A stretch of 46,213 nucleotides of DNA from Candidatus Babeliales bacterium (GTDB lineage: Bacteria; Patescibacteriota; Saccharimonadia; Saccharimonadales; UBA10212): the NCBI GenBank assembly GCA_035479215.1, contig DATIIZ010000030.1, forward strand, positions 1-46,213. The letters are read 5' to 3'. Both the position numbers and the translations under genes were made by a program. The notes below the pieces were generated by a model. The model saw only the letters and a program-made list of their open reading frames with translations, was not told the origin of the DNA and ran no database searches. The number at the start of each line of letters is the position of its first letter. The first letter of the stretch is position 1. Below, in pieces: positions 20,793 to 33,010 of this stretch.

Positions 20793-20804
20793 AAAGTAAG
20801 TCAA
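20775..20804 (-). promoter_or_regulatory. groES promoter
   Basis: On the minus strand: TTGACT-N18-TATTAT, with the -10 inside CIRCE. Confidence 0.6.
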
Positions 20805-20840
20805 GGGCATTTAGTTAAAGTTGCAAAAAATACAAAACGA

Positions 20841-20870
20841 TTGACTGGTGTCGGGCATAAGCTTTATACT
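20841..20870 (+). promoter_or_regulatory. promoter P1 of GC-rich island 1
   Basis: TTGACT-N18-TATACT. The 29-nt upstream module at 20819-20847 matches 21394-21422 at 23 of 29 positions. Confidence 0.55.
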
Positions 20871-20904
20871 CCGGTTATCCAGTCCCGTCGAGGAAAGGAC
20901 GCTT

Positions 20905-21255
20905 GTGAGAGCGAAAGTTGAGAAAGGCTCTAAAGGTCGCTGGTGGGTGACACCCATCGTCGATCGGCCGCTTCGGCCGAATGAGATGGGCGGCCTCGCG
21001 CGCGCGTTGCTAGGCATCGAAGGTGTCAAGCACACAAAGGTCCGTTTGCAGGACAGGAATGTGTTCCTGCGCGTGAATGAGAGCATCGAAGGGCTCTACG
21101 AAGAGATCCGCGAGACGGCGAACAAGTTCCTGGGACGGCTAGCCGCCAAGGTTTCCCGCCGCGGGGCAAAGCCTGGTGTGGTCAAGCGCATGCCGCCGAA
21201 GGCGGTGAAGCGTAGAAGGCGCCGTGGAGCGCAGGCACCAGTCTTCGGCTGGTAA
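20905..21255 (+). CDS. orphan GC-rich ORF A (116 aa) with an Arg/Lys-rich C-terminal tail
   Basis: GTG start 5 nt after GAGGAAAGGA. Third codon positions are mostly G/C. The tail is KRMPPKAVKRRRRRGAQAPVFGW. No family recognised. Confidence 0.55.
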   Translation: MRAKVEKGSKGRWWVTPIVDRPLRPNEMGGLARALLGIEGVKHTKVRLQDRNVFLRVNESIEGLYEEIRETANKFLGRLAAKVSRRGAKPGVVKRMPPKAVKRRRRRGAQAPVFGW

Positions 21256-21266
21256 GGACTGGAATC

Positions 21267-21308
21267 CGGGGCTCGGGATGGGCGAAACTCCAAACTCATC
21301 CCGAGCCC
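21267..21308 (+). terminator. 13-bp GC hairpin after ORF A (no U-tract)
   Basis: GGGGCTCGGGATG-N16-CATCCCGAGCCCC. Confidence 0.45.
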
Positions 21309-21415
21309 CAAGGGGCAAAATCCAAACACTTTTAGCCCCATTTTCGCCGCGCTGCCCTTCCCCGGGCGCGCGGCTTCGTTCTTTAGATTGATTAGTTGCA
21401 AAAGCATAAAAACTA

Positions 21416-21444
21416 TTGACTGATATGTATAAGGGGTCTATAAT
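21416..21444 (+). promoter_or_regulatory. promoter P2 of GC-rich island 1
   Basis: Consensus-grade TTGACT-N17-TATAAT, preceded by the AGTTGCAAAA module. Confidence 0.6.
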
Positions 21445-21484
21445 ACTCACATTCTCGCACTTTCCCCCGATGAAAGGAGCTGGC

Positions 21485-21832
21485 ATGTCCGATACGGTGG
21501 GTGTTATCCACTCGTCGTACAAGCTCGAGCAGGCTTGGGACAGGCACGCCCGTGGAGAAATCCTGGGTCTCCGCCTGCACTTCGAGAATCCCGACTTCAG
21601 AATCTGTCGAGGGATTCGCCGTCGTATGAAGAGCTATGCGCGCCCTCTGGGTCTGTGCGTCTGTTTCGACAACCCGATCCTGGGAGATAGGGCTGTCCTC
21701 CTCACGGAGAACGTGAAGAACAAGACGGACGGTCCGCTTGAGGAACGTGCTGAACGCTTCGCGAAGCACTTCGCCCATGGCGGCGTGCGGCGCGAGGACA
21801 CAGCTCTCGCTGCGATCGTGCTGGCCGCCTAG
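21485..21832 (+). CDS. orphan GC-rich ORF B (115 aa)
   Basis: ATG 5 nt after AAAGGAG; GC-rich third positions; no family recognised. Confidence 0.55.
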   Translation: MSDTVGVIHSSYKLEQAWDRHARGEILGLRLHFENPDFRICRGIRRRMKSYARPLGLCVCFDNPILGDRAVLLTENVKNKTDGPLEERAERFAKHFAHGGVRREDTALAAIVLAA

Positions 21833-21854
21833 GTCACACCACTCGCAAGTTTCA

Positions 21855-21880
21855 GGGTCCGGGACGTTCGTCCCGGACCC
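21855..21880 (+). terminator. 11-bp GC hairpin after ORF B
   Basis: GGGTCCGGGAC-GTTC-GTCCCGGACCC. Confidence 0.5.
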
Positions 21881-22013
21881 TCGCTCGGGGAAGTAGCGGA
21901 TTATTGTAAAGGATTAGAGCTAGAGCTCTATATGCTACCAAGCATCCTTTTACATATTAGCCGCGTGTTTCTGAATCTCCACAATCAGGAACCCGCGGCG
22001 TTTTCAGACCTGA

Positions 22014-24749: not shown

Positions 24750-27296
24750 ATGAACCTACCGAGCGTTTACGAGCCGGGGAAGTATGAGGAGGATATCTAT
24801 AAGCTCTGGGAAGAGAGCAAGGTATTCACTCCAAAAAGAACTAATTCCGAGGAAAGCTATTCGATAATGATGCCGTTGCCGAACGCCAATGGCCGGCTTC
24901 ATATCGGCAGTGTTTTGTTTGTTACGCTTCAAGATATTGTATCCCGGTACCAGCGCATGAAAGGGAAGCAGGTTCTTTGGCTGCCGGGTGCCGACCATGC
25001 CGGTTTCGAAACTTGGGTGGTTTATGAAAAGAAGTTAAATAAAGAAGGCAGATCTCGGTTTGACTACAGCCGGGAAGAGCTATACAAGCAAGTTTGGGAC
25101 TTTGTAGCCAGCAATCGGAAGGTATTTGAGCAGCAATTTAGAGAACTCGGCGCCAGTGTAGACTGGACTCGCTTTACTTTCTCGCTTGATGAAAAAATCG
25201 TAAATCAAGTCTATAAGACTTTTAAAAAGATGTGGGATGATGGGCTTGTTTACAGGGGTGAGAGAATAGTCAATTATTGTACCTATCATGGCACTAGTTT
25301 CGCTGATATCGAGGTCGAATATAAAGATGTGGACAGCCATCTTTGGCACATAGCCTATCCCTTAACAGATGCTAGCGGGGAAGTGGTGGTGGCTACGACC
25401 AGGCCGGAAACAATGCTGGGCGATGTGGCCGTGGCAGTCAATCCATCAGATGACAGATATAAGAAATATATCGGTAAAACAGTTAAATTACCTCTGACCA
25501 ACAGGGAAATTCCGATAATCGCTGATGAATTTGTCGATTCCAATTTCGGGACAGGTGCAGTAAAGCTTACTCCGGCCCACGACCCGGTAGACTTTGAAGC
25601 AGGACAGAGGCACGACCTGCCCATGATATCCGTTATAGACCATGAGGGGAATATGACTCATCATGCCCCGGAACCCTACCGAGGACTTGCGGCTGAAGAA
25701 GCCCGGAAAAAAGTGGTAGACGATCTAGAAAAAGCCGGCCTTATCAAGAAGATAGAAGAATATAGCCACAGCGTCGGGCACTGTTATAAATGCGGGAATG
25801 TAATCCAGCCGCTCTTGCTGGAGCAATGGTTTGTCGATATGAAACCGCTAGCAGCTCGAGCCATTGATTCTCTAAAAGAAAAGAAGATAAAGTTTTACCC
25901 CGACAGCAAACGTACCCAACTTATCAGATACCTAGACGGGCTTAAAGATTGGAATATAAGTCGCCAGATCGCCTGGGGGATACCGATACCGGCCTTTCGT
26001 AATGTTAATGATGACCAAGACTGGATCTACGACGAAAGGGTAGGGGAAGAAGAAATATCGGTAGACGGTAAAACTTATGTCCGTGATCCTGATGTATTTG
26101 ACACTTGGTTTTCTTCAGGGCAGTGGCCGTTTGCCGCCTTAGGTCTGGATAGCCAAGATCTTGAACAATTCTATCCTACAAGTCTTATGGAAACTGGGGG
26201 AGAAATCCTATATCCGTGGGTGTCGCGGATGATTATGCTCGGGCTGTACATGACCGACGAGGTTCCTTTCGAAGATGTTTATATTCACGGCTATGTACTG
26301 GCAGCTGACGGGGCCAAGATGAGCAAAAGCTTGGGCAATATTATCGATCCCGATGGTCTGCGTATAAAATATGGCGCCGATGCCTTAAGACTAGGGATCA
26401 TCGATGGCCGCGCGCCAGCAATTAATCGACCATTCGATGAGACTAAAGCCAAGGCCGGGCGAAACTTCTGCAATAAGCTTTGGAATATTTCCAGATATAT
26501 TGAAGGAGCAGCAGGACAGGGAGATAGTTCTAGCCCTAAGCCAAACAGCCCAGCGGACCACTGGATACTTAACAAGTTAAGTAATTTAACAGAAGGGTTA
26601 GACGCAGATTTGAGTAAATATCGTTTTGGTGATGCTTATCTAAAACTTTATCACTTCGTATGGGATGATCTGGCCGATTGGTACATCGAGGCTTCTAAAA
26701 CCGAACTTAATCCAGGCCTTCTAAAATACGTCCTGGAATCAACCTTAATTGTCGCCCATCCTTTCGCCCCATTCATTACAGAGGTAATTTGGCAGAATTT
26801 AGGGCACAAAGAACTTTTAGCAACTCAGCTATTGCCCAAAATTTCCGAATCAGATAAATCCGAAGCCGGTAAATTCAAAGGAATTAAAGAACTAATAGCG
26901 GAAATCCGAATGTGGAATGCCACAACTTCTACTAAAGCCCAGGACTTCTACTATGGGAGTACGAACTGGGTAGATGAGCAGCGAGACATATTGGAAAAAT
27001 TGGCTCGCTTAGAGAATATCAGCCATTCAGAAGCGAAACCGTCTGGCACTATCCCGCTGACATCTGTTGACGGCGACTTTTGGCTAAGAATTGACCGCGA
27101 TGCAGCAAAACCGAACCTAGAAAAACTGCTGGCTAATTATCGGCAAAGTGAAAAGTTACTCAAACGGCGATTAGATAGTCCGGGCTATAAAGATAAAGCT
27201 CCACAAGAAATTGTTGCTCAAACTGAAAAAGAACTAGTTGAAACCAGTGCGCTGGCAAGTGTGGTGGAAAAACAGTTGAAGTCTTTAGAAGACTAG
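24750..27296 (+). CDS. valS: valine--tRNA ligase
   Basis: A HIGH-like motif (NGRLHIGS), KMSKS (KMSKSLGN) and a C-terminal coiled coil; 848 aa. Confidence 0.93.
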   Translation: MNLPSVYEPGKYEEDIYKLWEESKVFTPKRTNSEESYSIMMPLPNANGRLHIGSVLFVTLQDIVSRYQRMKGKQVLWLPGADHAGFETWVVYEKKLNKEGRSRFDYSREELYKQVWDFVASNRKVFEQQFRELGASVDWTRFTFSLDEKIVNQVYKTFKKMWDDGLVYRGERIVNYCTYHGTSFADIEVEYKDVDSHLWHIAYPLTDASGEVVVATTRPETMLGDVAVAVNPSDDRYKKYIGKTVKLPLTNREIPIIADEFVDSNFGTGAVKLTPAHDPVDFEAGQRHDLPMISVIDHEGNMTHHAPEPYRGLAAEEARKKVVDDLEKAGLIKKIEEYSHSVGHCYKCGNVIQPLLLEQWFVDMKPLAARAIDSLKEKKIKFYPDSKRTQLIRYLDGLKDWNISRQIAWGIPIPAFRNVNDDQDWIYDERVGEEEISVDGKTYVRDPDVFDTWFSSGQWPFAALGLDSQDLEQFYPTSLMETGGEILYPWVSRMIMLGLYMTDEVPFEDVYIHGYVLAADGAKMSKSLGNIIDPDGLRIKYGADALRLGIIDGRAPAINRPFDETKAKAGRNFCNKLWNISRYIEGAAGQGDSSSPKPNSPADHWILNKLSNLTEGLDADLSKYRFGDAYLKLYHFVWDDLADWYIEASKTELNPGLLKYVLESTLIVAHPFAPFITEVIWQNLGHKELLATQLLPKISESDKSEAGKFKGIKELIAEIRMWNATTSTKAQDFYYGSTNWVDEQRDILEKLARLENISHSEAKPSGTIPLTSVDGDFWLRIDRDAAKPNLEKLLANYRQSEKLLKRRLDSPGYKDKAPQEIVAQTEKELVETSALASVVEKQLKSLED

Positions 27297-28060
27297 GCCT
27301 TCTGAGCTATTAATTGCTTGGCTCCGACTTTAGCCATCTCGAAAACTTGTCTTAGGGCTTGGGCGATCTGTGGGCTTTCTATGATAGTGCCGATGGCTTC
27401 CTCGCCGAAAGATATTAAGGATACCTTATCTCCGTAAATTGATATCTCAACAGGAGCGGTATAAGATTTAGGCGGATACCAGGCCATATCTCTTTTTAAC
27501 TCCGTATCATTTTGTTTAGCCCAATCGATAGCTGAAGGAAAGGCCGGTGCTAACCCGTGGGCATTAATACCTGCTTTAGACCGCTTCTGCATATATTTGT
27601 ATAGAACGTCGCCGAAGTATTCCTCGTCTGCTGGGGTGCGGATAAAGTAAACATCTTTGCCAGTTCTTAAATGATCTTCGTAGATTTTGGTTAAACCTTC
27701 CTTGCCTTGATAGAACCTAACGCCGGGTTCGCCCCTGTTGCTGTAATAATAAGTCAGTAACTGAGGCAGGGAACTGCGGTAAAGATCTTCGGCTGACGAA
27801 ACTTCTTTTCGCTTTTGGGCGATGAATTTTTCCAATGCGGAAGGGTTGGCTGGGGAGTAAGTCGCTTTCTTGGCATCACCTTCTTTTGTTGCCAGGCCGA
27901 TTTCTTCTAATTTGGCCAGGGACATGTAAGCCGCCGTCCGTGATTCCTTTATACGACCCGCCAATTGCGGCGGGGTTAGACTACCAGCTTTTATGAGTGC
28001 AATGTAGCTTTTGGCCTGGGAGTTGGTCAAACCGAATTGCTTGAGTGTTTCAGCATTCAC
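27293..28060 (-). CDS. TrmB-like winged-HTH transcriptional regulator
   Basis: N-terminal LTNSQAKSYIALIKAGSLTPPQLAGRIKESRTAAYMSLAKLEEIGL. GTG start. It is divergent from GC-rich island 2. Confidence 0.65.
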   Translation of the reverse strand: MNAETLKQFGLTNSQAKSYIALIKAGSLTPPQLAGRIKESRTAAYMSLAKLEEIGLATKEGDAKKATYSPANPSALEKFIAQKRKEVSSAEDLYRSSLPQLLTYYYSNRGEPGVRFYQGKEGLTKIYEDHLRTGKDVYFIRTPADEEYFGDVLYKYMQKRSKAGINAHGLAPAFPSAIDWAKQNDTELKRDMAWYPPKSYTAPVEISIYGDKVSLISFGEEAIGTIIESPQIAQALRQVFEMAKVGAKQLIAQKA

Positions 28061-28148
28061 TATCCGATATTATCAATAGTTTCATACTTTGTAAAGTTAT
28101 AAATTGACAAAAATAACACTTTAAACAGATATAAAATTAAGCTTATAA

Positions 28149-28177
28149 TTGACATTATAATGTAATTAAGTCATAAT
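28149..28177 (+). promoter_or_regulatory. promoter of island 2
   Basis: TTGACA-N17-CATAAT. A second TTGACA lies at 28104-28109 within a repeated TTATAA(A)TTGACA motif. Confidence 0.55.
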
Positions 28178-28227
28178 ATCGCCGTCAGTTTGCATAAGCA
28201 AGTTGACGCACATTACAAGGAGAAGCC

Positions 28228-28656
28228 ATGGATGAGGAAACTGCCTATCAGAAAGCTAATGAACTCGTATGTCAGCTTTACGGCGTGGGTAGCCCGGTCT
28301 CCGACGAAGAGGTTCGAGTTCTGATAGCCGGCAGGAGGCGCCAACGAATTACTTTGGCTCTTCAGCTTGTCGGGATATCAGAGCTATCTGGGTTTAGTCC
28401 CACGGAGCTCGTGGAGATGCTGGATTTCGATCTTCGTGCACCACATGCCTACGTAGAGTATGCCCGCTACTTCAAGCGAGCCTGCAAAGTCTTCTGTAAG
28501 AAGGGCTATGGGTCTGAGATTCAGCGAGTTCTGACAACCGACGGGATGTTTGGGAGGCAGGGCAACGAGCCCTTTTTGTCTCCAGCCTCGTTGATTAGGT
28601 CAAGGGACGTTAGCGGTCTTGACGACCTGATCTTCAACCTTCCACCAAAGGAGTAG
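28228..28656 (+). CDS. orphan GC-rich ORF C (142 aa)
   Basis: ATG 5 nt after AAGGAG; higher GC than the flanking genes; no family recognised. Confidence 0.55.
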   Translation: MDEETAYQKANELVCQLYGVGSPVSDEEVRVLIAGRRRQRITLALQLVGISELSGFSPTELVEMLDFDLRAPHAYVEYARYFKRACKVFCKKGYGSEIQRVLTTDGMFGRQGNEPFLSPASLIRSRDVSGLDDLIFNLPPKE

Positions 28657-28935
28657 GAGTTCGGAGCCAAGAGAACCCTCCCCACGACGAGGGCGGGCAA
28701 GAGTGGAGCAGGGTGGAGCGCTTCGGTGCTCATCCTAAGGATCTGCAACCTGTCGAAAGGCAGGAAAACTTCTCTCCGCAACGAGGGAGAAGTAGCAGTC
28801 AGAGGTAACTCACTTGGCTTAATAGCGACGCAGCCTCCTCTGATGTCTGGCTTGAAAAACCAGGTACCTTCCAGGGCGGTCGCTCCTTTGGGGGTGTGAG
28901 CTCGGGACATTTGTCCTTGAGCTCCACCCCCTTAA
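28657..28935 (+). ncRNA. unclassified highly structured GC-rich RNA region
   Basis: No ORF of 60 aa or more on the + strand. Hairpins include GAGCGC-UUCG-GUGCUC (28716-28731), CCUGUC-GAAA-GGCAGG (28749-28764) and CUUCUCUC-N8-GGGAGAAG (28769-28792). A composite hairpin of 17 paired bases spans 28890-28931. The tetraloops are canonical only on the + strand. Confidence 0.45.
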
Positions 28936-29007
28936 AACGTAGGCAGATGTGTATCTGCCCTGATGAGGCCAACCCGCCAAGAGGCGGGCAAAGAAGGCCG
29001 AAACGTT
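28936..29007 (+). ncRNA. type III hammerhead self-cleaving ribozyme (predicted cleavage between 28941 and 28942)
   Basis: AACGUA|GGCAGAU-GUGU-AUCUGCC-CUGAUGA-GGCC[...CCCGCC-AAGA-GGCGGG...]GGCC-GAAA-CGUU. All invariant core nucleotides, the G10.1-C11.1 pair, the A15.1-U16.1 pair and the GUA cleavage triplet are present. Confidence 0.78.
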
Positions 29008-29024
29008 AATTAATCAAGGAATAT

Positions 29025-29849
29025 ATGAACGAAACTTTAGATAATCAAATTCAAGATCCTGAGAAGGCTCATGCAATGGCTTTGGCCGGTGATGGATTTA
29101 GAACTGAGGCTGTTCAAAAACGCCAGAAAGCTGCCGCAATCCAGTTAGCTAAATTAGCCTATGAAGACACGACCGATCAAGACACTCGCAAGAAAATATT
29201 AAATGGTGCTTTTACAGAGGTGGGTGTAAATGATTTTTGGAGTCGGCCAGATATAGTTGGGAGGCGACCAGGATCATTTAGAAGCCGGAATTTAGGGAAC
29301 AATTCTTCGCAAGATGACATTAATGCACGGCGAGATAGGCAGATTGCGAGTTTTCTCGGGTCGCATACCAGATATGAGGATCGGGCTCAAGAATTAGAAA
29401 GCTTAGCCGAAGAAAAAGAATCGTGGGCCGAACTAATATTTGACAATCCTGCTGTCGAACATTACAAAAAAATTCACCCTGAACTTAACATTGAAGACCA
29501 ATGGCGGCTGGAATGCATAGTAAATCAGGCTAGGGCATATTATGAAGGCCATCTTAGTGATATGCCGAGGTACAGAGAGGTCCTCCAAGACGGTAAATAT
29601 GTGCCGGGAGGGTTGCTCCAGCACCTATTTCCGAATAGTTTTTCTGAAGAAGATGAGGAAGAGTTTGAACCTAACTCCGAATTGCTGAAACTTTTAAATA
29701 ACGGTGGCACGACCGTTGACCAGCTACGTGAATTCCTACTGCGCCAGGAAGAGATAAAACTTGAAGCGGAGAAAAAGCGAGCTGAAGATCTTACGCAAAT
29801 GCTCGCTGATATTAAAAAAAGACAGCTTAGTGCGAACTTGGAAAATTAG
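29025..29849 (+). CDS. hypothetical protein (274 aa, charged, coiled-coil-like C-terminus)
   Basis: Native-like composition, SD AAGGA, starts 18 nt after the ribozyme. Confidence 0.6.
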   Translation: MNETLDNQIQDPEKAHAMALAGDGFRTEAVQKRQKAAAIQLAKLAYEDTTDQDTRKKILNGAFTEVGVNDFWSRPDIVGRRPGSFRSRNLGNNSSQDDINARRDRQIASFLGSHTRYEDRAQELESLAEEKESWAELIFDNPAVEHYKKIHPELNIEDQWRLECIVNQARAYYEGHLSDMPRYREVLQDGKYVPGGLLQHLFPNSFSEEDEEEFEPNSELLKLLNNGGTTVDQLREFLLRQEEIKLEAEKKRAEDLTQMLADIKKRQLSANLEN

Positions 29850-30712
29850 AACTCTAGTGCGGTTTTGACGCGGGCGATGCTGTCTTCGGGGTTGAGTTCG
29901 TCGAACCAGACCACCTGCCAACCTTGTTTGTCGGCGGCTGTCAGGTAAGGGCGCTCATTATCTACTAGCAAGATTTCGTTGGGCTCCATGGCGGCCAGTT
30001 CCTGGGCGGTCTGATAAATCTTGGGGTCCGGTTTAACGGCGCCGGCTTTAGATGAATCGACGGCTACTTTGTAGTTTAAATCTGGGATAAGTTTCTTTTG
30101 CAGCAGCTCGTCAACGAAACCGGGCATGCTGTTGGAAAGCAGACCGATCTCGTAATTTTCTGCTACCCAGTCCAACAGAGGCACAATGCCCGGGATGGGC
30201 TCCACACTAGCCATGTAATATTTGTGCCAGTCGAACCCGGGCACGTCCAGCTCTTGGCCCATCAGTTTATTGAACTCTTCGCCACTCATATTACCGGTCG
30301 CACCCGTATCATTGCGGCGCCAAAAAAGGGCTTCGCCCATATCGACAGGTTTATTAACATCTTGCGCGACCATCGTAAAAGCCCGGTGGAAAAAGTGCAC
30401 CAGCGTACCGTTAACATCAAAGAATACAAATCGTACGCCGGTTTTGGAACGTTTCTTAGTGTTTATCGGAGCGGTAGACTCGATGCCGCGGCTTTGTAGC
30501 TCTAATAAATCTTCAAGCTTGGCACCCGTTACCGAAGCGATATTAGCGACAGTAAAAACAGATGGTGAGCGGATAGCACCACGTTCTATCTTTGCCAAAG
30601 TCGAATAACTTAGTCCGGCTTTTTGGCACAGCTCCTGCTGGGTCATGCCGGCGCGTTTGCGCGCTAACTGTAAACGATTGCCAAGAGCTTTTTCATCCAT
30701 AGCAATGCCCAC
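29846..30712 (-). CDS. XRE-family HTH fused to a HAD-like hydrolase domain
   Basis: The N-terminus LGNRLQLARKRAGMTQQELCQKAGLSYSTLAKIERG is followed by FVFFDVNGTLVHF (DxxGT motif I) and a C-terminal LLVDNE. The start could instead be the ATG at 30700. Confidence 0.7.
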   Translation of the reverse strand: MGIAMDEKALGNRLQLARKRAGMTQQELCQKAGLSYSTLAKIERGAIRSPSVFTVANIASVTGAKLEDLLELQSRGIESTAPINTKKRSKTGVRFVFFDVNGTLVHFFHRAFTMVAQDVNKPVDMGEALFWRRNDTGATGNMSGEEFNKLMGQELDVPGFDWHKYYMASVEPIPGIVPLLDWVAENYEIGLLSNSMPGFVDELLQKKLIPDLNYKVAVDSSKAGAVKPDPKIYQTAQELAAMEPNEILLVDNERPYLTAADKQGWQVVWFDELNPEDSIARVKTALEF

Positions 30713-31406: not shown

Positions 31407-31496
31407 GGAGGAGTGGCCGAGCGGTTGAAGGCGCTGCTCTCGAAAAGCAGTATATGGGAAACCGTATCGCGAGTTCGAATCTCGCCTCCTCCGCCA
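31407..31496 (+). tRNA. tRNA-Ser (anticodon CGA), CCA encoded
   Basis: GGAGGAGTGGCCGAGCGGTTGAAGGCGCTGCTCTCGAAAAGCAG...GAGTTCGAATCTCGCCTCCTCCGCCA. The anticodon loop is CUCGAAA, with a long variable arm. Confidence 0.9.
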
Positions 31497-32248: not shown

Positions 32249-32445
32249 GGTAAGGAATGCTTAACTTGTTAAGTATTTTTATAATGAACGAAAGTTATAG
32301 ATTAACTAGGAAATAGAATCTAAGCATAAGCAATTGCTTTTTACCCCTGTTAGTGGTATGAATTAGACAGCATCAAGGCACTACCCGTTTGGGCCCGTCT
32401 TGGGCCGCACATTCCGACTACGAGTTCGCTCGTGAGGGGAGACCC

Positions 32446-32943
32446 ATGTCTCGTAAGCATGGAGCGCTGTTGATTGCAGCGCTCGCCGTTATGGCTTTGG
32501 CGACGACCGCGAGTGGCTCGAATGCTGCTCCTGCGTCGGCAAAGATCAAGTGCGAGTCGACTAGGACCCAGATCCGAATCACGATTTGCGGTCCGACAAT
32601 CGTCGATCCGACCACCACAACGCCGTTTTCGGTGAGGGTGAGCTACCCTCGTGGCAAGCCGATCAGCAAGATCGTCATCAACATCGGCCCGAGCGACTAC
32701 GTCGTGACGCCCGCCAGCGCCCAAGGTCACACCACATACGACCAGTCGTACAAGATTCAGGCGGTCACCTGGACCGTCAAGCACTTCCGTGCTGGTACTG
32801 GAATCACCAAGAGATTGGGATTCCAGTTCCCACCGGAGAACACGTACGGCTCGAGCCTCTTCGTGCATGTCGGGGCCTATGGGCCCTACTACAAGGCCGG
32901 GCTGATGAGATTCGTCACCTACCGGCAAGTCCAAGGCGGCTAG
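32446..32943 (+). CDS. orphan GC-rich secreted protein D (165 aa)
   Basis: ATG after GAGGGGAG. The signal peptide is MSRKHGALLIAALAVMALATTASGSNAAPASA. The body is beta-rich with two Cys, and third codon positions are strongly G/C. Confidence 0.6.
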   Translation: MSRKHGALLIAALAVMALATTASGSNAAPASAKIKCESTRTQIRITICGPTIVDPTTTTPFSVRVSYPRGKPISKIVINIGPSDYVVTPASAQGHTTYDQSYKIQAVTWTVKHFRAGTGITKRLGFQFPPENTYGSSLFVHVGAYGPYYKAGLMRFVTYRQVQGG

Positions 32944-32968
32944 CTCGCCGCACGCGCAGCAGTAACGC

Positions 32969-32992
32969 GGCCCCCGTGGAGACACGGGGGCC
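32969..32992 (+). terminator. 10-bp GC hairpin after ORF D
   Basis: GGCCCCCGTG-GAGA-CACGGGGGCC. Confidence 0.5.
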
Positions 32993-33010
32993 GAGAAATA
33001 CCAAATCACA

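Follow-up and report, generated by a model that had tools for sequence, protein, structure and literature searches.

Prophage-encoded hammerhead ribozymes have been described in which multiple copies flank individual, non-constant genes, and these ribozymes cleave in vitro and in Escherichia coli (PMC3088659). Perreault et al. (2011) proposed that they process long transcripts into gene-length messenger RNAs (PMC3088659); a 2019 review regarded this polycistronic-processing proposal as unproven and the role of bacterial hammerheads as largely open (PMC6765202). We analysed a contig of 46,213 nucleotides (nt) from assembly GCA_035479215.1 (DATIIZ010000030.1; the whole stretch is referred to below as the window), in particular the locus at 28,061–29,849 and its flanking genes, where a hammerhead arrangement known from phages is placed in a chromosomal operon leader of Saccharibacteria, which is new. 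In the searchable literature, no paper was found that brings hammerheads together with the Saccharibacteria, the Patescibacteria or the candidate phyla radiation. An earlier note on this DNA had listed a promoter, an open reading frame (ORF C), a structured RNA, a hammerhead and a second reading frame of 274 amino acids (aa), ORF274, divergent from a TrmB-like gene, and all of these features, including the promoter boxes, were recovered where it had placed them. We consider it somewhat more probable than the alternatives taken together that the ribozyme processes a polycistronic transcript into separately stabilised RNAs within a hypervariable operon leader.

The ribozyme is a predicted type III hammerhead on the + strand (28934–29009), with a predicted cut between A28941 and G28942 and an extra hairpin inserted in stem II. 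We read the sequence by the features that Perreault et al. (2011) require of a hammerhead (core, adjacent pairs and cleavage nucleotide; PMC3088659). Its core, CUGAUGA at 28960–28966 and GAA at 29000–29002 (read as CUGAUGA...GAAA), has the conserved catalytic positions, and the A15.1–U16.1 pair, the GUA cleavage triplet and the core-adjacent pairs (1.1–2.1 and 10.1–11.1) are intact. Stem I is formed by GGCAGAU and AUCUGCC, stem II by GGCC and GGCC together with the inserted hairpin, and stem III by AACGU and ACGUU, the latter being open as in the type III topology. In a 1-kilobase (kb) search the Rfam model RF00008 gave 32.8 bits (expect value, E, 6e-5), which lies under its gathering score of 48.5 because of the 24-nt hairpin insertion in stem II; sister hammerheads from related loci (denoted by L numbers) scored 23–42 bits against the same model. 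A local covariance model made from seven of these sisters (two each from L007 and L031, one each from L032, L033 and L022), with the window copy excluded, scored the window hammerhead at 59.4 bits (E 1e-14) and matched nothing else in the window, which holds a single hammerhead. Among the seven sisters, 94.9% of cells were paired, as against 30–38% with slid partners, and compensatory changes occurred in 10 of the 14 pairs. The three-way junction was also present in the minimum-energy fold of the entire 368-nt region. Taken together, the hammerhead is of consensus type and under selection, and cleavage is predicted. At the gathering threshold, Rfam models detected two tRNAs over the window and nothing else, and permissive Rfam scans of the region and of the related loci returned hammerheads only.

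It should be noted that two of the sisters, at L032:883–941 and L033:1621–1680, are predicted ribozymes in which A15.1–U16.1 is swapped to U15.1–A16.1. They carry GAAUCGC in place of GAAACGC and a GAC triplet; the double change keeps the pairing, and the other core positions are intact.

A GC hairpin is conserved directly 5' of the cut, and a ribosome-binding site (RBS) follows directly 3' of the ribozyme. In the window this site, read from the sequence, is AAGGAA (29016–29021, + strand), 7 nt 3' of the ribozyme, and ORF274 (29025–29849, + strand) starts about 15–18 nt after the ribozyme. The 28-nt junction GGCCGAAACGTTAATTAATCAAGGAATA at the hammerhead end is identical in the window and in the second hammerhead of L031, with different reading frames downstream. 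When IMG/VR was searched with the stem II core, 13 contigs were retrieved; under the local model ten of these reach about 60 bits, as much as the window copy. Six distinct viral contexts were read, and each had a stop codon, a short GC hairpin, the hammerhead, 15–25 nt with an RBS, and an ATG; in one of them the hammerhead is followed by a reading frame for a small membrane protein. The hairpin–hammerhead module is of the phage type. Its likeness to the arrays of Perreault et al. lies in a type III hammerhead of consensus core that stands between operon cistrons, a few nucleotides before the next RBS, in flanked genes that are variable and mostly of unknown function, and in the presence of several hammerheads per array (L007 and L031). 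The intercistronic, co-oriented placement with variable genes was found in the window, in L007 and L031 (two hammerheads each) and in L032 and L033 (one each). The differences are that no recognisable prophage is present here, the elements lying instead in the 5' leader of a chromosomal pair of TrmB and ORF274-family genes of Saccharibacteria, and that one of the units carries a conserved 280-nt RNA instead of, or besides, a protein gene. No prophage or integrase location was found at this slot, although the hammerhead subtype is still common to viral contigs. The unit does end in a ribozyme, as the earlier note had it. The hammerhead is a generic cistron boundary: unrelated reading frames adjoin it in L007 and L031, and viral contigs show it in the same arrangement.

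Searches based on the TrmB-like protein yielded five genome loci and four metagenome loci, and the contents of the slot between the TrmB-like gene and a convergent HTH-HAD gene were found to differ even among close relatives with TrmB proteins that are 76–85% identical. The window slot is ordered as leader hairpin, ORF C, RNA, hammerhead and ORF274. L033 has the same leader as the window, then an ORF C homologue, a GC hairpin and a hammerhead, where the contig ends. L008–L010 have the leader, a 49-aa membrane reading frame, the RNA and ORF262, with no hammerhead, and L022 has the leader, about 175 nt without a credible reading frame, the RNA, a hammerhead with two A–C mismatches and a 278-aa reading frame. 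In L001–L006, another structured leader is followed by an ORF C homologue and a hairpin and nothing more. L031 comprises a partial upstream reading frame, a hairpin, a hammerhead, an ORF C homologue, a second hairpin and hammerhead, and an unrelated 162-aa reading frame; L032 comprises an ORF C homologue, a hairpin, a hammerhead, a 57-aa membrane reading frame, a spacer and the RNA, up to the contig end. L007, where TrmB is 33% identical, holds a 63-aa membrane reading frame, a hairpin, a hammerhead, a 144-aa reading frame, a further hammerhead and ORF261, and L018 has a window-type leader followed by yet another reading frame. L012–L015 and L021 have a single reading frame in the slot, with no insert and no hammerhead, and the distant L016 has the two-box promoter about 70 nt 5' of a distant ORF274-family reading frame, again with no insert.

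We conclude that the locus is one state of a hypervariable operon-leader slot in a clade of Saccharimonadales. The comparison of slots among relatives shows that in the ancestral state the TrmB-type and ORF274-family genes diverged from a conserved two-box promoter region. The ORF274-family gene is thus the ancestral gene driven by the slot promoter, and its partnership with TrmB is old. The membrane reading frames, ORF C, the RNA and the hammerheads are lineage-specific additions to the 5' leader of this family, and they behave as independent modules. Most units end in a GC-rich hairpin and then a type III hammerhead, from which the next RBS is about 15 nt away. ORF C itself has the features of an optional accessory cistron: in the window, L031, L032 and L033, four of the five lineages with genes of its family, a hammerhead comes after the gene. 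The description of the locus as a ribozyme-terminated unit is thus borne out, and such units recur in relatives. The related expectation that homologues of ORF C would be accompanied by the same downstream elements was borne out for the hammerhead, which usually follows, but not for the RNA, which is not linked to them. ORF C and the RNA are thus seemingly independent modules and not a cognate pair. The hammerhead appears to be useful rather than essential, because it is absent from L008 and weakened in L022.

Two recurring components of the slot were noted besides these. A second structured leader stands 5' of ORF C homologues (L001:1822–1945 and L032:243–400) and replaces the CGTCAG...TTGACG leader of the window; it consists of a hairpin CUCCGUC...GCGGAG, then GCUGGU..CGAAAG and then a GC hairpin, with weak covariation across the two sequences. 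Small hydrophobic reading frames of 49–77 aa recur as well: those at L008:990–1139, L032:948–1121 and L007:708–899 are hammerhead-adjacent cistrons of the Saccharibacteria arrays, and the one at L043:646–879 belongs to a viral contig whose hammerhead is of the same subtype.

The structured RNA of about 275–280 nt (28659–28931, + strand) has a conserved fold with covariation. Its parts are a multi-hairpin domain enclosed by a closing helix (GGAGCCAAG / CUUGGCUU), a further domain, and a terminal hairpin of 19 base pairs (bp) at 28890–28931. The fold of 28657–28933 has an energy of −120 kcal/mol (z = −3.5 versus shuffles). The RNA is about 76% identical to the copy in L008–L010, where the upstream reading frame is unrelated, and diverged copies were also found in L022 and L032; it is thus present in four lineages. 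Three full-length variants fit a 73-pair structure with 96.8% of cells paired, and 21 pairs show compensatory changes, compared with 0–7 in slid controls, the structure having been derived from the same three sequences that were used for the covariation count. Substitutions and indels of 1–5 nt lack codon periodicity, and no reading frame is kept. The + strand was assigned from conserved G–U pairs, the orientation of the hammerhead and a slightly better fold. Against Rfam 15 at E ≤ 10 the RNA matched nothing besides the hammerhead and chance-level hits, and the copies of relatives gave the same outcome. No copies were found in IMG/VR by pattern scans or among GenBank phages by BLAST of the RNA with the hammerhead; of four RNA-derived patterns run on viral contigs, two had no match and two had chance matches in coding regions, as judged by sequence reading and nhmmer. 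No tandem repeats with a Tandem Repeats Finder score of at least 30 were present in 28000–29900. All complete copies (window, L008 and L022) directly precede an ORF274-family gene, and the RNA is about 70–76% identical where the downstream protein falls to 25–28% and TrmB is 78% identical, so that the RNA is better conserved than the protein gene downstream. These comparisons argue that the ~280-nt RNA is a previously undescribed, well-supported structured RNA motif.

Several identities were considered for the RNA and set aside. RNase P, transfer-messenger RNA and group I or II introns gave no model match, and their hallmark motifs were absent by eye; the terminal hairpin was rejected as an intrinsic terminator, there being no U-tract in any variant. 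A spurious reading frame across the RNA was dropped as a proxy for protein searches, since the indels shift its frame and a single 6-residue word is common to the variants. In addition, the RNA holds three conserved pyrimidine blocks that resemble anti-Shine–Dalgarno sequences (CUCCUCU, CCUUCC and UCCUUU). A 12-nt complementarity (92%) was seen between the last codons of ORF C (28642–28653, CCACCAAAGGAG) and the RNA at 28883–28894 (the conserved CUCCUUUGGGGG); by eye it is not kept in L008 or L022.

In the processing scheme that we favour, the promoter at 28149–28177 would give rise to one transcript with the leader, ORF C, the RNA, the hammerhead and ORF274, and the hammerhead would cut itself between A28941 and G28942. 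The upstream product would be the ORF C message, its 3' part being the structured RNA that ends in the 19-bp hairpin and a 2',3'-cyclic phosphate, and the downstream product would be the ORF274 message, which would start at a 5'-hydroxyl and carry the folded body of the ribozyme 16 nt 5' of the start codon. Both new ends would be poor exonuclease substrates, and the accessory part and the conserved gene would therefore gain separate stability and translation, with the expression of ORF274 insulated from the content upstream. The protective effect of such ends belongs to the general knowledge of bacterial RNA decay and is not drawn from data on this organism. A comparable design is known from RiboJ, a synthetic insulator in which a hammerhead-type ribozyme and a hairpin are placed between the promoter and the RBS. 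As in RiboJ, a self-cleaving ribozyme 5' of the RBS would remove a variable leader and leave a fixed, structured message end with a 5'-hydroxyl; unlike RiboJ, the element is natural, its hairpin, being 5' of the cut, would lend stability to the upstream fragment, and its insulating effect here is an inferred one. Terminator-like sites between the promoter and ORF274 are no commoner than in shuffled sequences, and a scan found no further promoter-like site on the + strand between 28178 and 29025.

Several points weigh against this scheme. Ribozyme activity, the shared transcript and the stabilising effect at the locus are all inferred from sequence. The hammerhead is missing in L008 before an ORF274 homologue, and the L022 copy has its two A–C mismatches. 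The comparison draws on three full and one partial RNA variants and eight hammerheads, all from one narrow clade and mostly from short metagenomic contigs. Furthermore, the many invariant unpaired bases of the RNA suggest more than a passive 3' end, and the scheme assigns no function to this conserved 280-nt RNA. The value of the locus is that its relatives offer an unusually clean natural comparison: between one promoter and one downstream family there may be no insert, the RNA by itself, the RNA and a hammerhead, or one to three hammerhead-bounded cistrons, and this set makes the hypothesis of processing and insulation directly testable. The locus also adds a new structured RNA motif with a predicted ribozyme-defined end, and natural hammerheads with a swapped A15.1–U16.1 pair.

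Among the alternatives, the one that survives best, although we regard it as clearly less probable than processing, is that the 280-nt RNA has a function of its own as a non-coding RNA. The hammerhead would mature its 3' end, and the RNA would act with the ORF274-family protein or sense a signal to control cleavage or expression in the manner of a riboswitch or allosteric ribozyme. The position of all three complete copies directly before an ORF274-family gene, the better conservation of the RNA than of the protein encoded there, the numerous invariant unpaired blocks and the 21 compensatory pairs all agree with such a function. In L022, which has no upstream reading frame, the RNA would constitute a long non-coding transcript ending at the ribozyme. 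However, ORF274-family genes occur without the RNA in L007, L016, L023, L027, L029 and L030, and L008 has the RNA without a ribozyme. No ligand, binding motif or expression platform could be identified; the terminal hairpin, besides lacking a U-tract, leaves the RBS uncovered, and ORF274 has no recognisable RNA-binding fold. A broader proposal, to which we would give similarly tentative credence, is that the RNA represents a new hammerhead-released class, working either as a ribonucleoprotein with ORF274-family (DPEKAHAMA-motif) proteins or as a cleavage-gating sensor, and that hammerhead-bounded units are exchangeable coding and non-coding cassettes shared between Saccharibacteria and phages. 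If this were true, the sensor case would be a natural allosteric hammerhead leader.

That the hammerhead-bounded units are mobile cassettes, either as RNA circles that re-enter through RNA or complementary DNA, as retrozymes do, or with the hairpin-plus-hammerhead DNA serving as an attC-like recombination site, we consider improbable. Close relatives do hold different cassettes in the same slot, near-identical hammerhead pairs flank single reading frames in L031 and L007, the 28-nt junction recurs before different reading frames in the window and L031, and the same hammerhead subtype occurs in viral contigs. As in retrozymes and viroid-like circular RNAs (PMC4918200), near-identical type III hammerheads flank a short unit in L031 and L007, and double cleavage there would give ligatable ends. 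The present locus differs from them in consisting of DNA-encoded cistrons with an RBS, in having no long terminal repeats or primer-binding sites, and in the single hammerhead of the window, from which no circle can form. The likeness to integron cassettes consists of promoterless variable cistrons after a fixed promoter, each ending in a conserved structured element, but that element is here a ribozyme acting on RNA, and the slot has neither an integrase nor an attC consensus. No recombinase was found in the slot or its flanks, the cassette ends being a hairpin and a hammerhead and not the attC consensus, and neither the surroundings of the slot in the window nor any related locus contain a reverse transcriptase or an integrase. 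The shuffling can also be explained by homologous recombination between the repeated 60-nt modules of hammerhead and hairpin, or by phage transfer.

Still less credible is the proposal, put forward in the earlier note, that ORF C and the RNA form a cognate protein–RNA system (a type III toxin–antitoxin, or an effector that is scaffolded or guided by RNA) in which the ribozyme sets the end of the RNA. The two do share one operon in two lineages, the window and L032, and the ribozyme would set the RNA 3' end. However, ORF C homologues stand without the RNA in L001–L006 and L031, the RNA stands without ORF C in L008–L010 (where the 49-aa membrane reading frame takes its place) and in L022 (no upstream reading frame), and in L032 a hammerhead and the membrane reading frame separate the two. 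The locus resembles ToxIN-like type III toxin–antitoxins in that a protein gene and a processed non-coding RNA lie in one operon. In those systems, the antitoxin RNA is a tandem repeat array 5' of the toxin and is cut by the toxin, whereas here a single complex fold without repeats lies 3' of the reading frame, would be cut by a ribozyme and does not consistently accompany ORF C. The toxin–antitoxin assignment is not supported: there is no repeat-array RNA, no match to an endoribonuclease of the ToxN/AbiQ type, no consistent co-occurrence, and no match in PADLOC, Pfam or the PDB. Finally, an assembly chimera or an otherwise unreal GC-richer segment, a possibility raised in the earlier note and for which the step from ~31–37% GC in the intergenic region to 52–57% over 28200–29000 might speak, can practically be dismissed. 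The rise is a modest one that host genes also reach (HTH-HAD gene, 51%), and a higher GC content than in the adjoining DNA is to be expected of a structured RNA. Moreover, the junctions of leader, RNA, hammerhead and reading frames recur in assemblies made independently from other samples, including the 28-nt junction identical to L031.

ORF C (142 aa; 28228–28656, + strand) is preceded by AAGGAG, a strong RBS, six bases 5' of its ATG. Its family is tiny, with two clusters in 5.8 billion proteins and seven representatives in 1.84 billion. The ratio of non-synonymous to synonymous substitution rates, 0.2–0.5 where synonymous change is unsaturated, points to purifying selection. It had been described as GC-rich, and its 52% does exceed the window mean of 46%, as does the 57% of the RNA, but the excess is modest, and because the HTH-HAD gene also reaches 51%, ORF C is not clearly foreign. 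Nothing was found for it by BLAST against GenBank phages. AlphaFold predicted both ORF C and ORF274 as all-helical, with pLDDT (predicted local distance difference test) values of 68 and 70, respectively. In agreement with the view that no known family is recognisable in either protein, neither had a match in Pfam, PHROGs, PADLOC, NCBIfam, PDB sequences or PDB folds: Foldseek of the two models against the PDB returned none at E ≤ 0.001, profile searches of PDB sequences solely a marginal match to the helical-repeat protein Stu2, and none of the PADLOC defence-system models matched the proteins of the locus.

The ORF274 family is Saccharibacteria-specific and helical, and has an N-terminal signature, (I/V)QDPEKAHAMALAGD..R, that is not known in Pfam or NCBIfam; a search of GTDB genomes based on ORF274 found nothing. 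The 278-aa reading frame of L022 has the N-terminal motif at an overall identity of only 25–28%, and the reading frame divergent from TrmB in L016 was recognised as a distant member of the family (hhalign probability 86%, E 5e-6). Some proteins of the family (P0006, P0008, P0009 and P0010; loci L023–L028) have two or three copies of (I/V)(Q/E)DPEKAHAMALAGD..R, with acidic linkers between them. The downstream reading frames of several loci open with MSE(T/I)L though they are otherwise unrelated, for example the 162-aa reading frame of L031. In addition, a 19-nt direct repeat, 84% identical, was observed between 28999–29017 (the hammerhead 3' end and spacer, CGAAACGTTAATTAATCAA) and 29030–29048 (codons 2–8 of ORF274, CGAAACTTTAGATAATCAA). 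It was rejected as a target-site duplication: it is not kept in L031, and similar two-copy repeats occur elsewhere in the 1.1-kb region. The repeat is probably a chance match; together with the common MSE(T/I)L start, it may reflect either a recombination boundary or chance.

The TrmB-like regulator gene (27293–28060, − strand) was identified by Pfam TrmB (E 4.4e-10) and an NCBIfam TrmBL2-like HTH model. With this protein as the query, GTDB representatives yielded solely metagenome-assembled genomes (MAGs) labelled Saccharibacteria, Saccharimonadales or Patescibacteria. The protein is 76–85% identical in close relatives and 54–65% identical in GTDB Saccharimonadales MAGs. The Pfam match and the relatives thus uphold the view of a TrmB-type gene as the conserved divergent neighbour of the slot. 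The sigma-70-type promoter, TTGACA-N17-CATAAT (28149–28177, + strand; −35 box 28149–28154), agrees with the consensus at 11 of 12 positions and is kept in relatives by sequence comparison. A further TTGACA box (28104–28109, + strand) is conserved about 45–50 nt 5' of the promoter −35 in the window, L001, L008, L016, L018, L022 and L033, and could be an operator or a second −35, with a regulatory role that is possible. The 5' leader hairpin CGTCAG-N14-TTGACG (28183–28208, + strand) is conserved in sequence and is kept in L008, L018, L020, L022 and L033, although the DNA 3' of the hairpin differs. On the right, the convergent HTH(XRE)-HAD hydrolase gene (29846–30712, − strand; Pfam HTH_3 and HAD) is found at the same position in L001, L008, L022 and L031 and is the conserved right border of the slot. 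It encodes an XRE-type HTH fused to a HAD-family hydrolase and has a 4-nt convergent overlap with the stop codon of ORF274. Further flanks of the slot are valS, HIT and tRNA-Ser; close to the slot, neither the window nor the loci of relatives showed an integrase or a phage gene.

Two other GC-rich islands were observed in the window. The first, at 20800–22000, comprises about 1.2 kb at 56–58% GC (mean 46%) between groES and a Mur-ligase-like gene; it contains short overlapping reading frames only, with no Pfam match and no Rfam family (the best being sX13, 24 bits, E 0.045). The local hammerhead model found nothing there, and the island may represent a further structured RNA or an insert of foreign DNA. 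The second, at 32350–33010 (59–60% GC), lies 3' of tRNA-Ser(cga) (31407–31496) and holds two overlapping reading frames on opposite strands, of 184 aa (+) and 219 aa (−), with no Pfam match; it may be an insert adjoining the tRNA gene.

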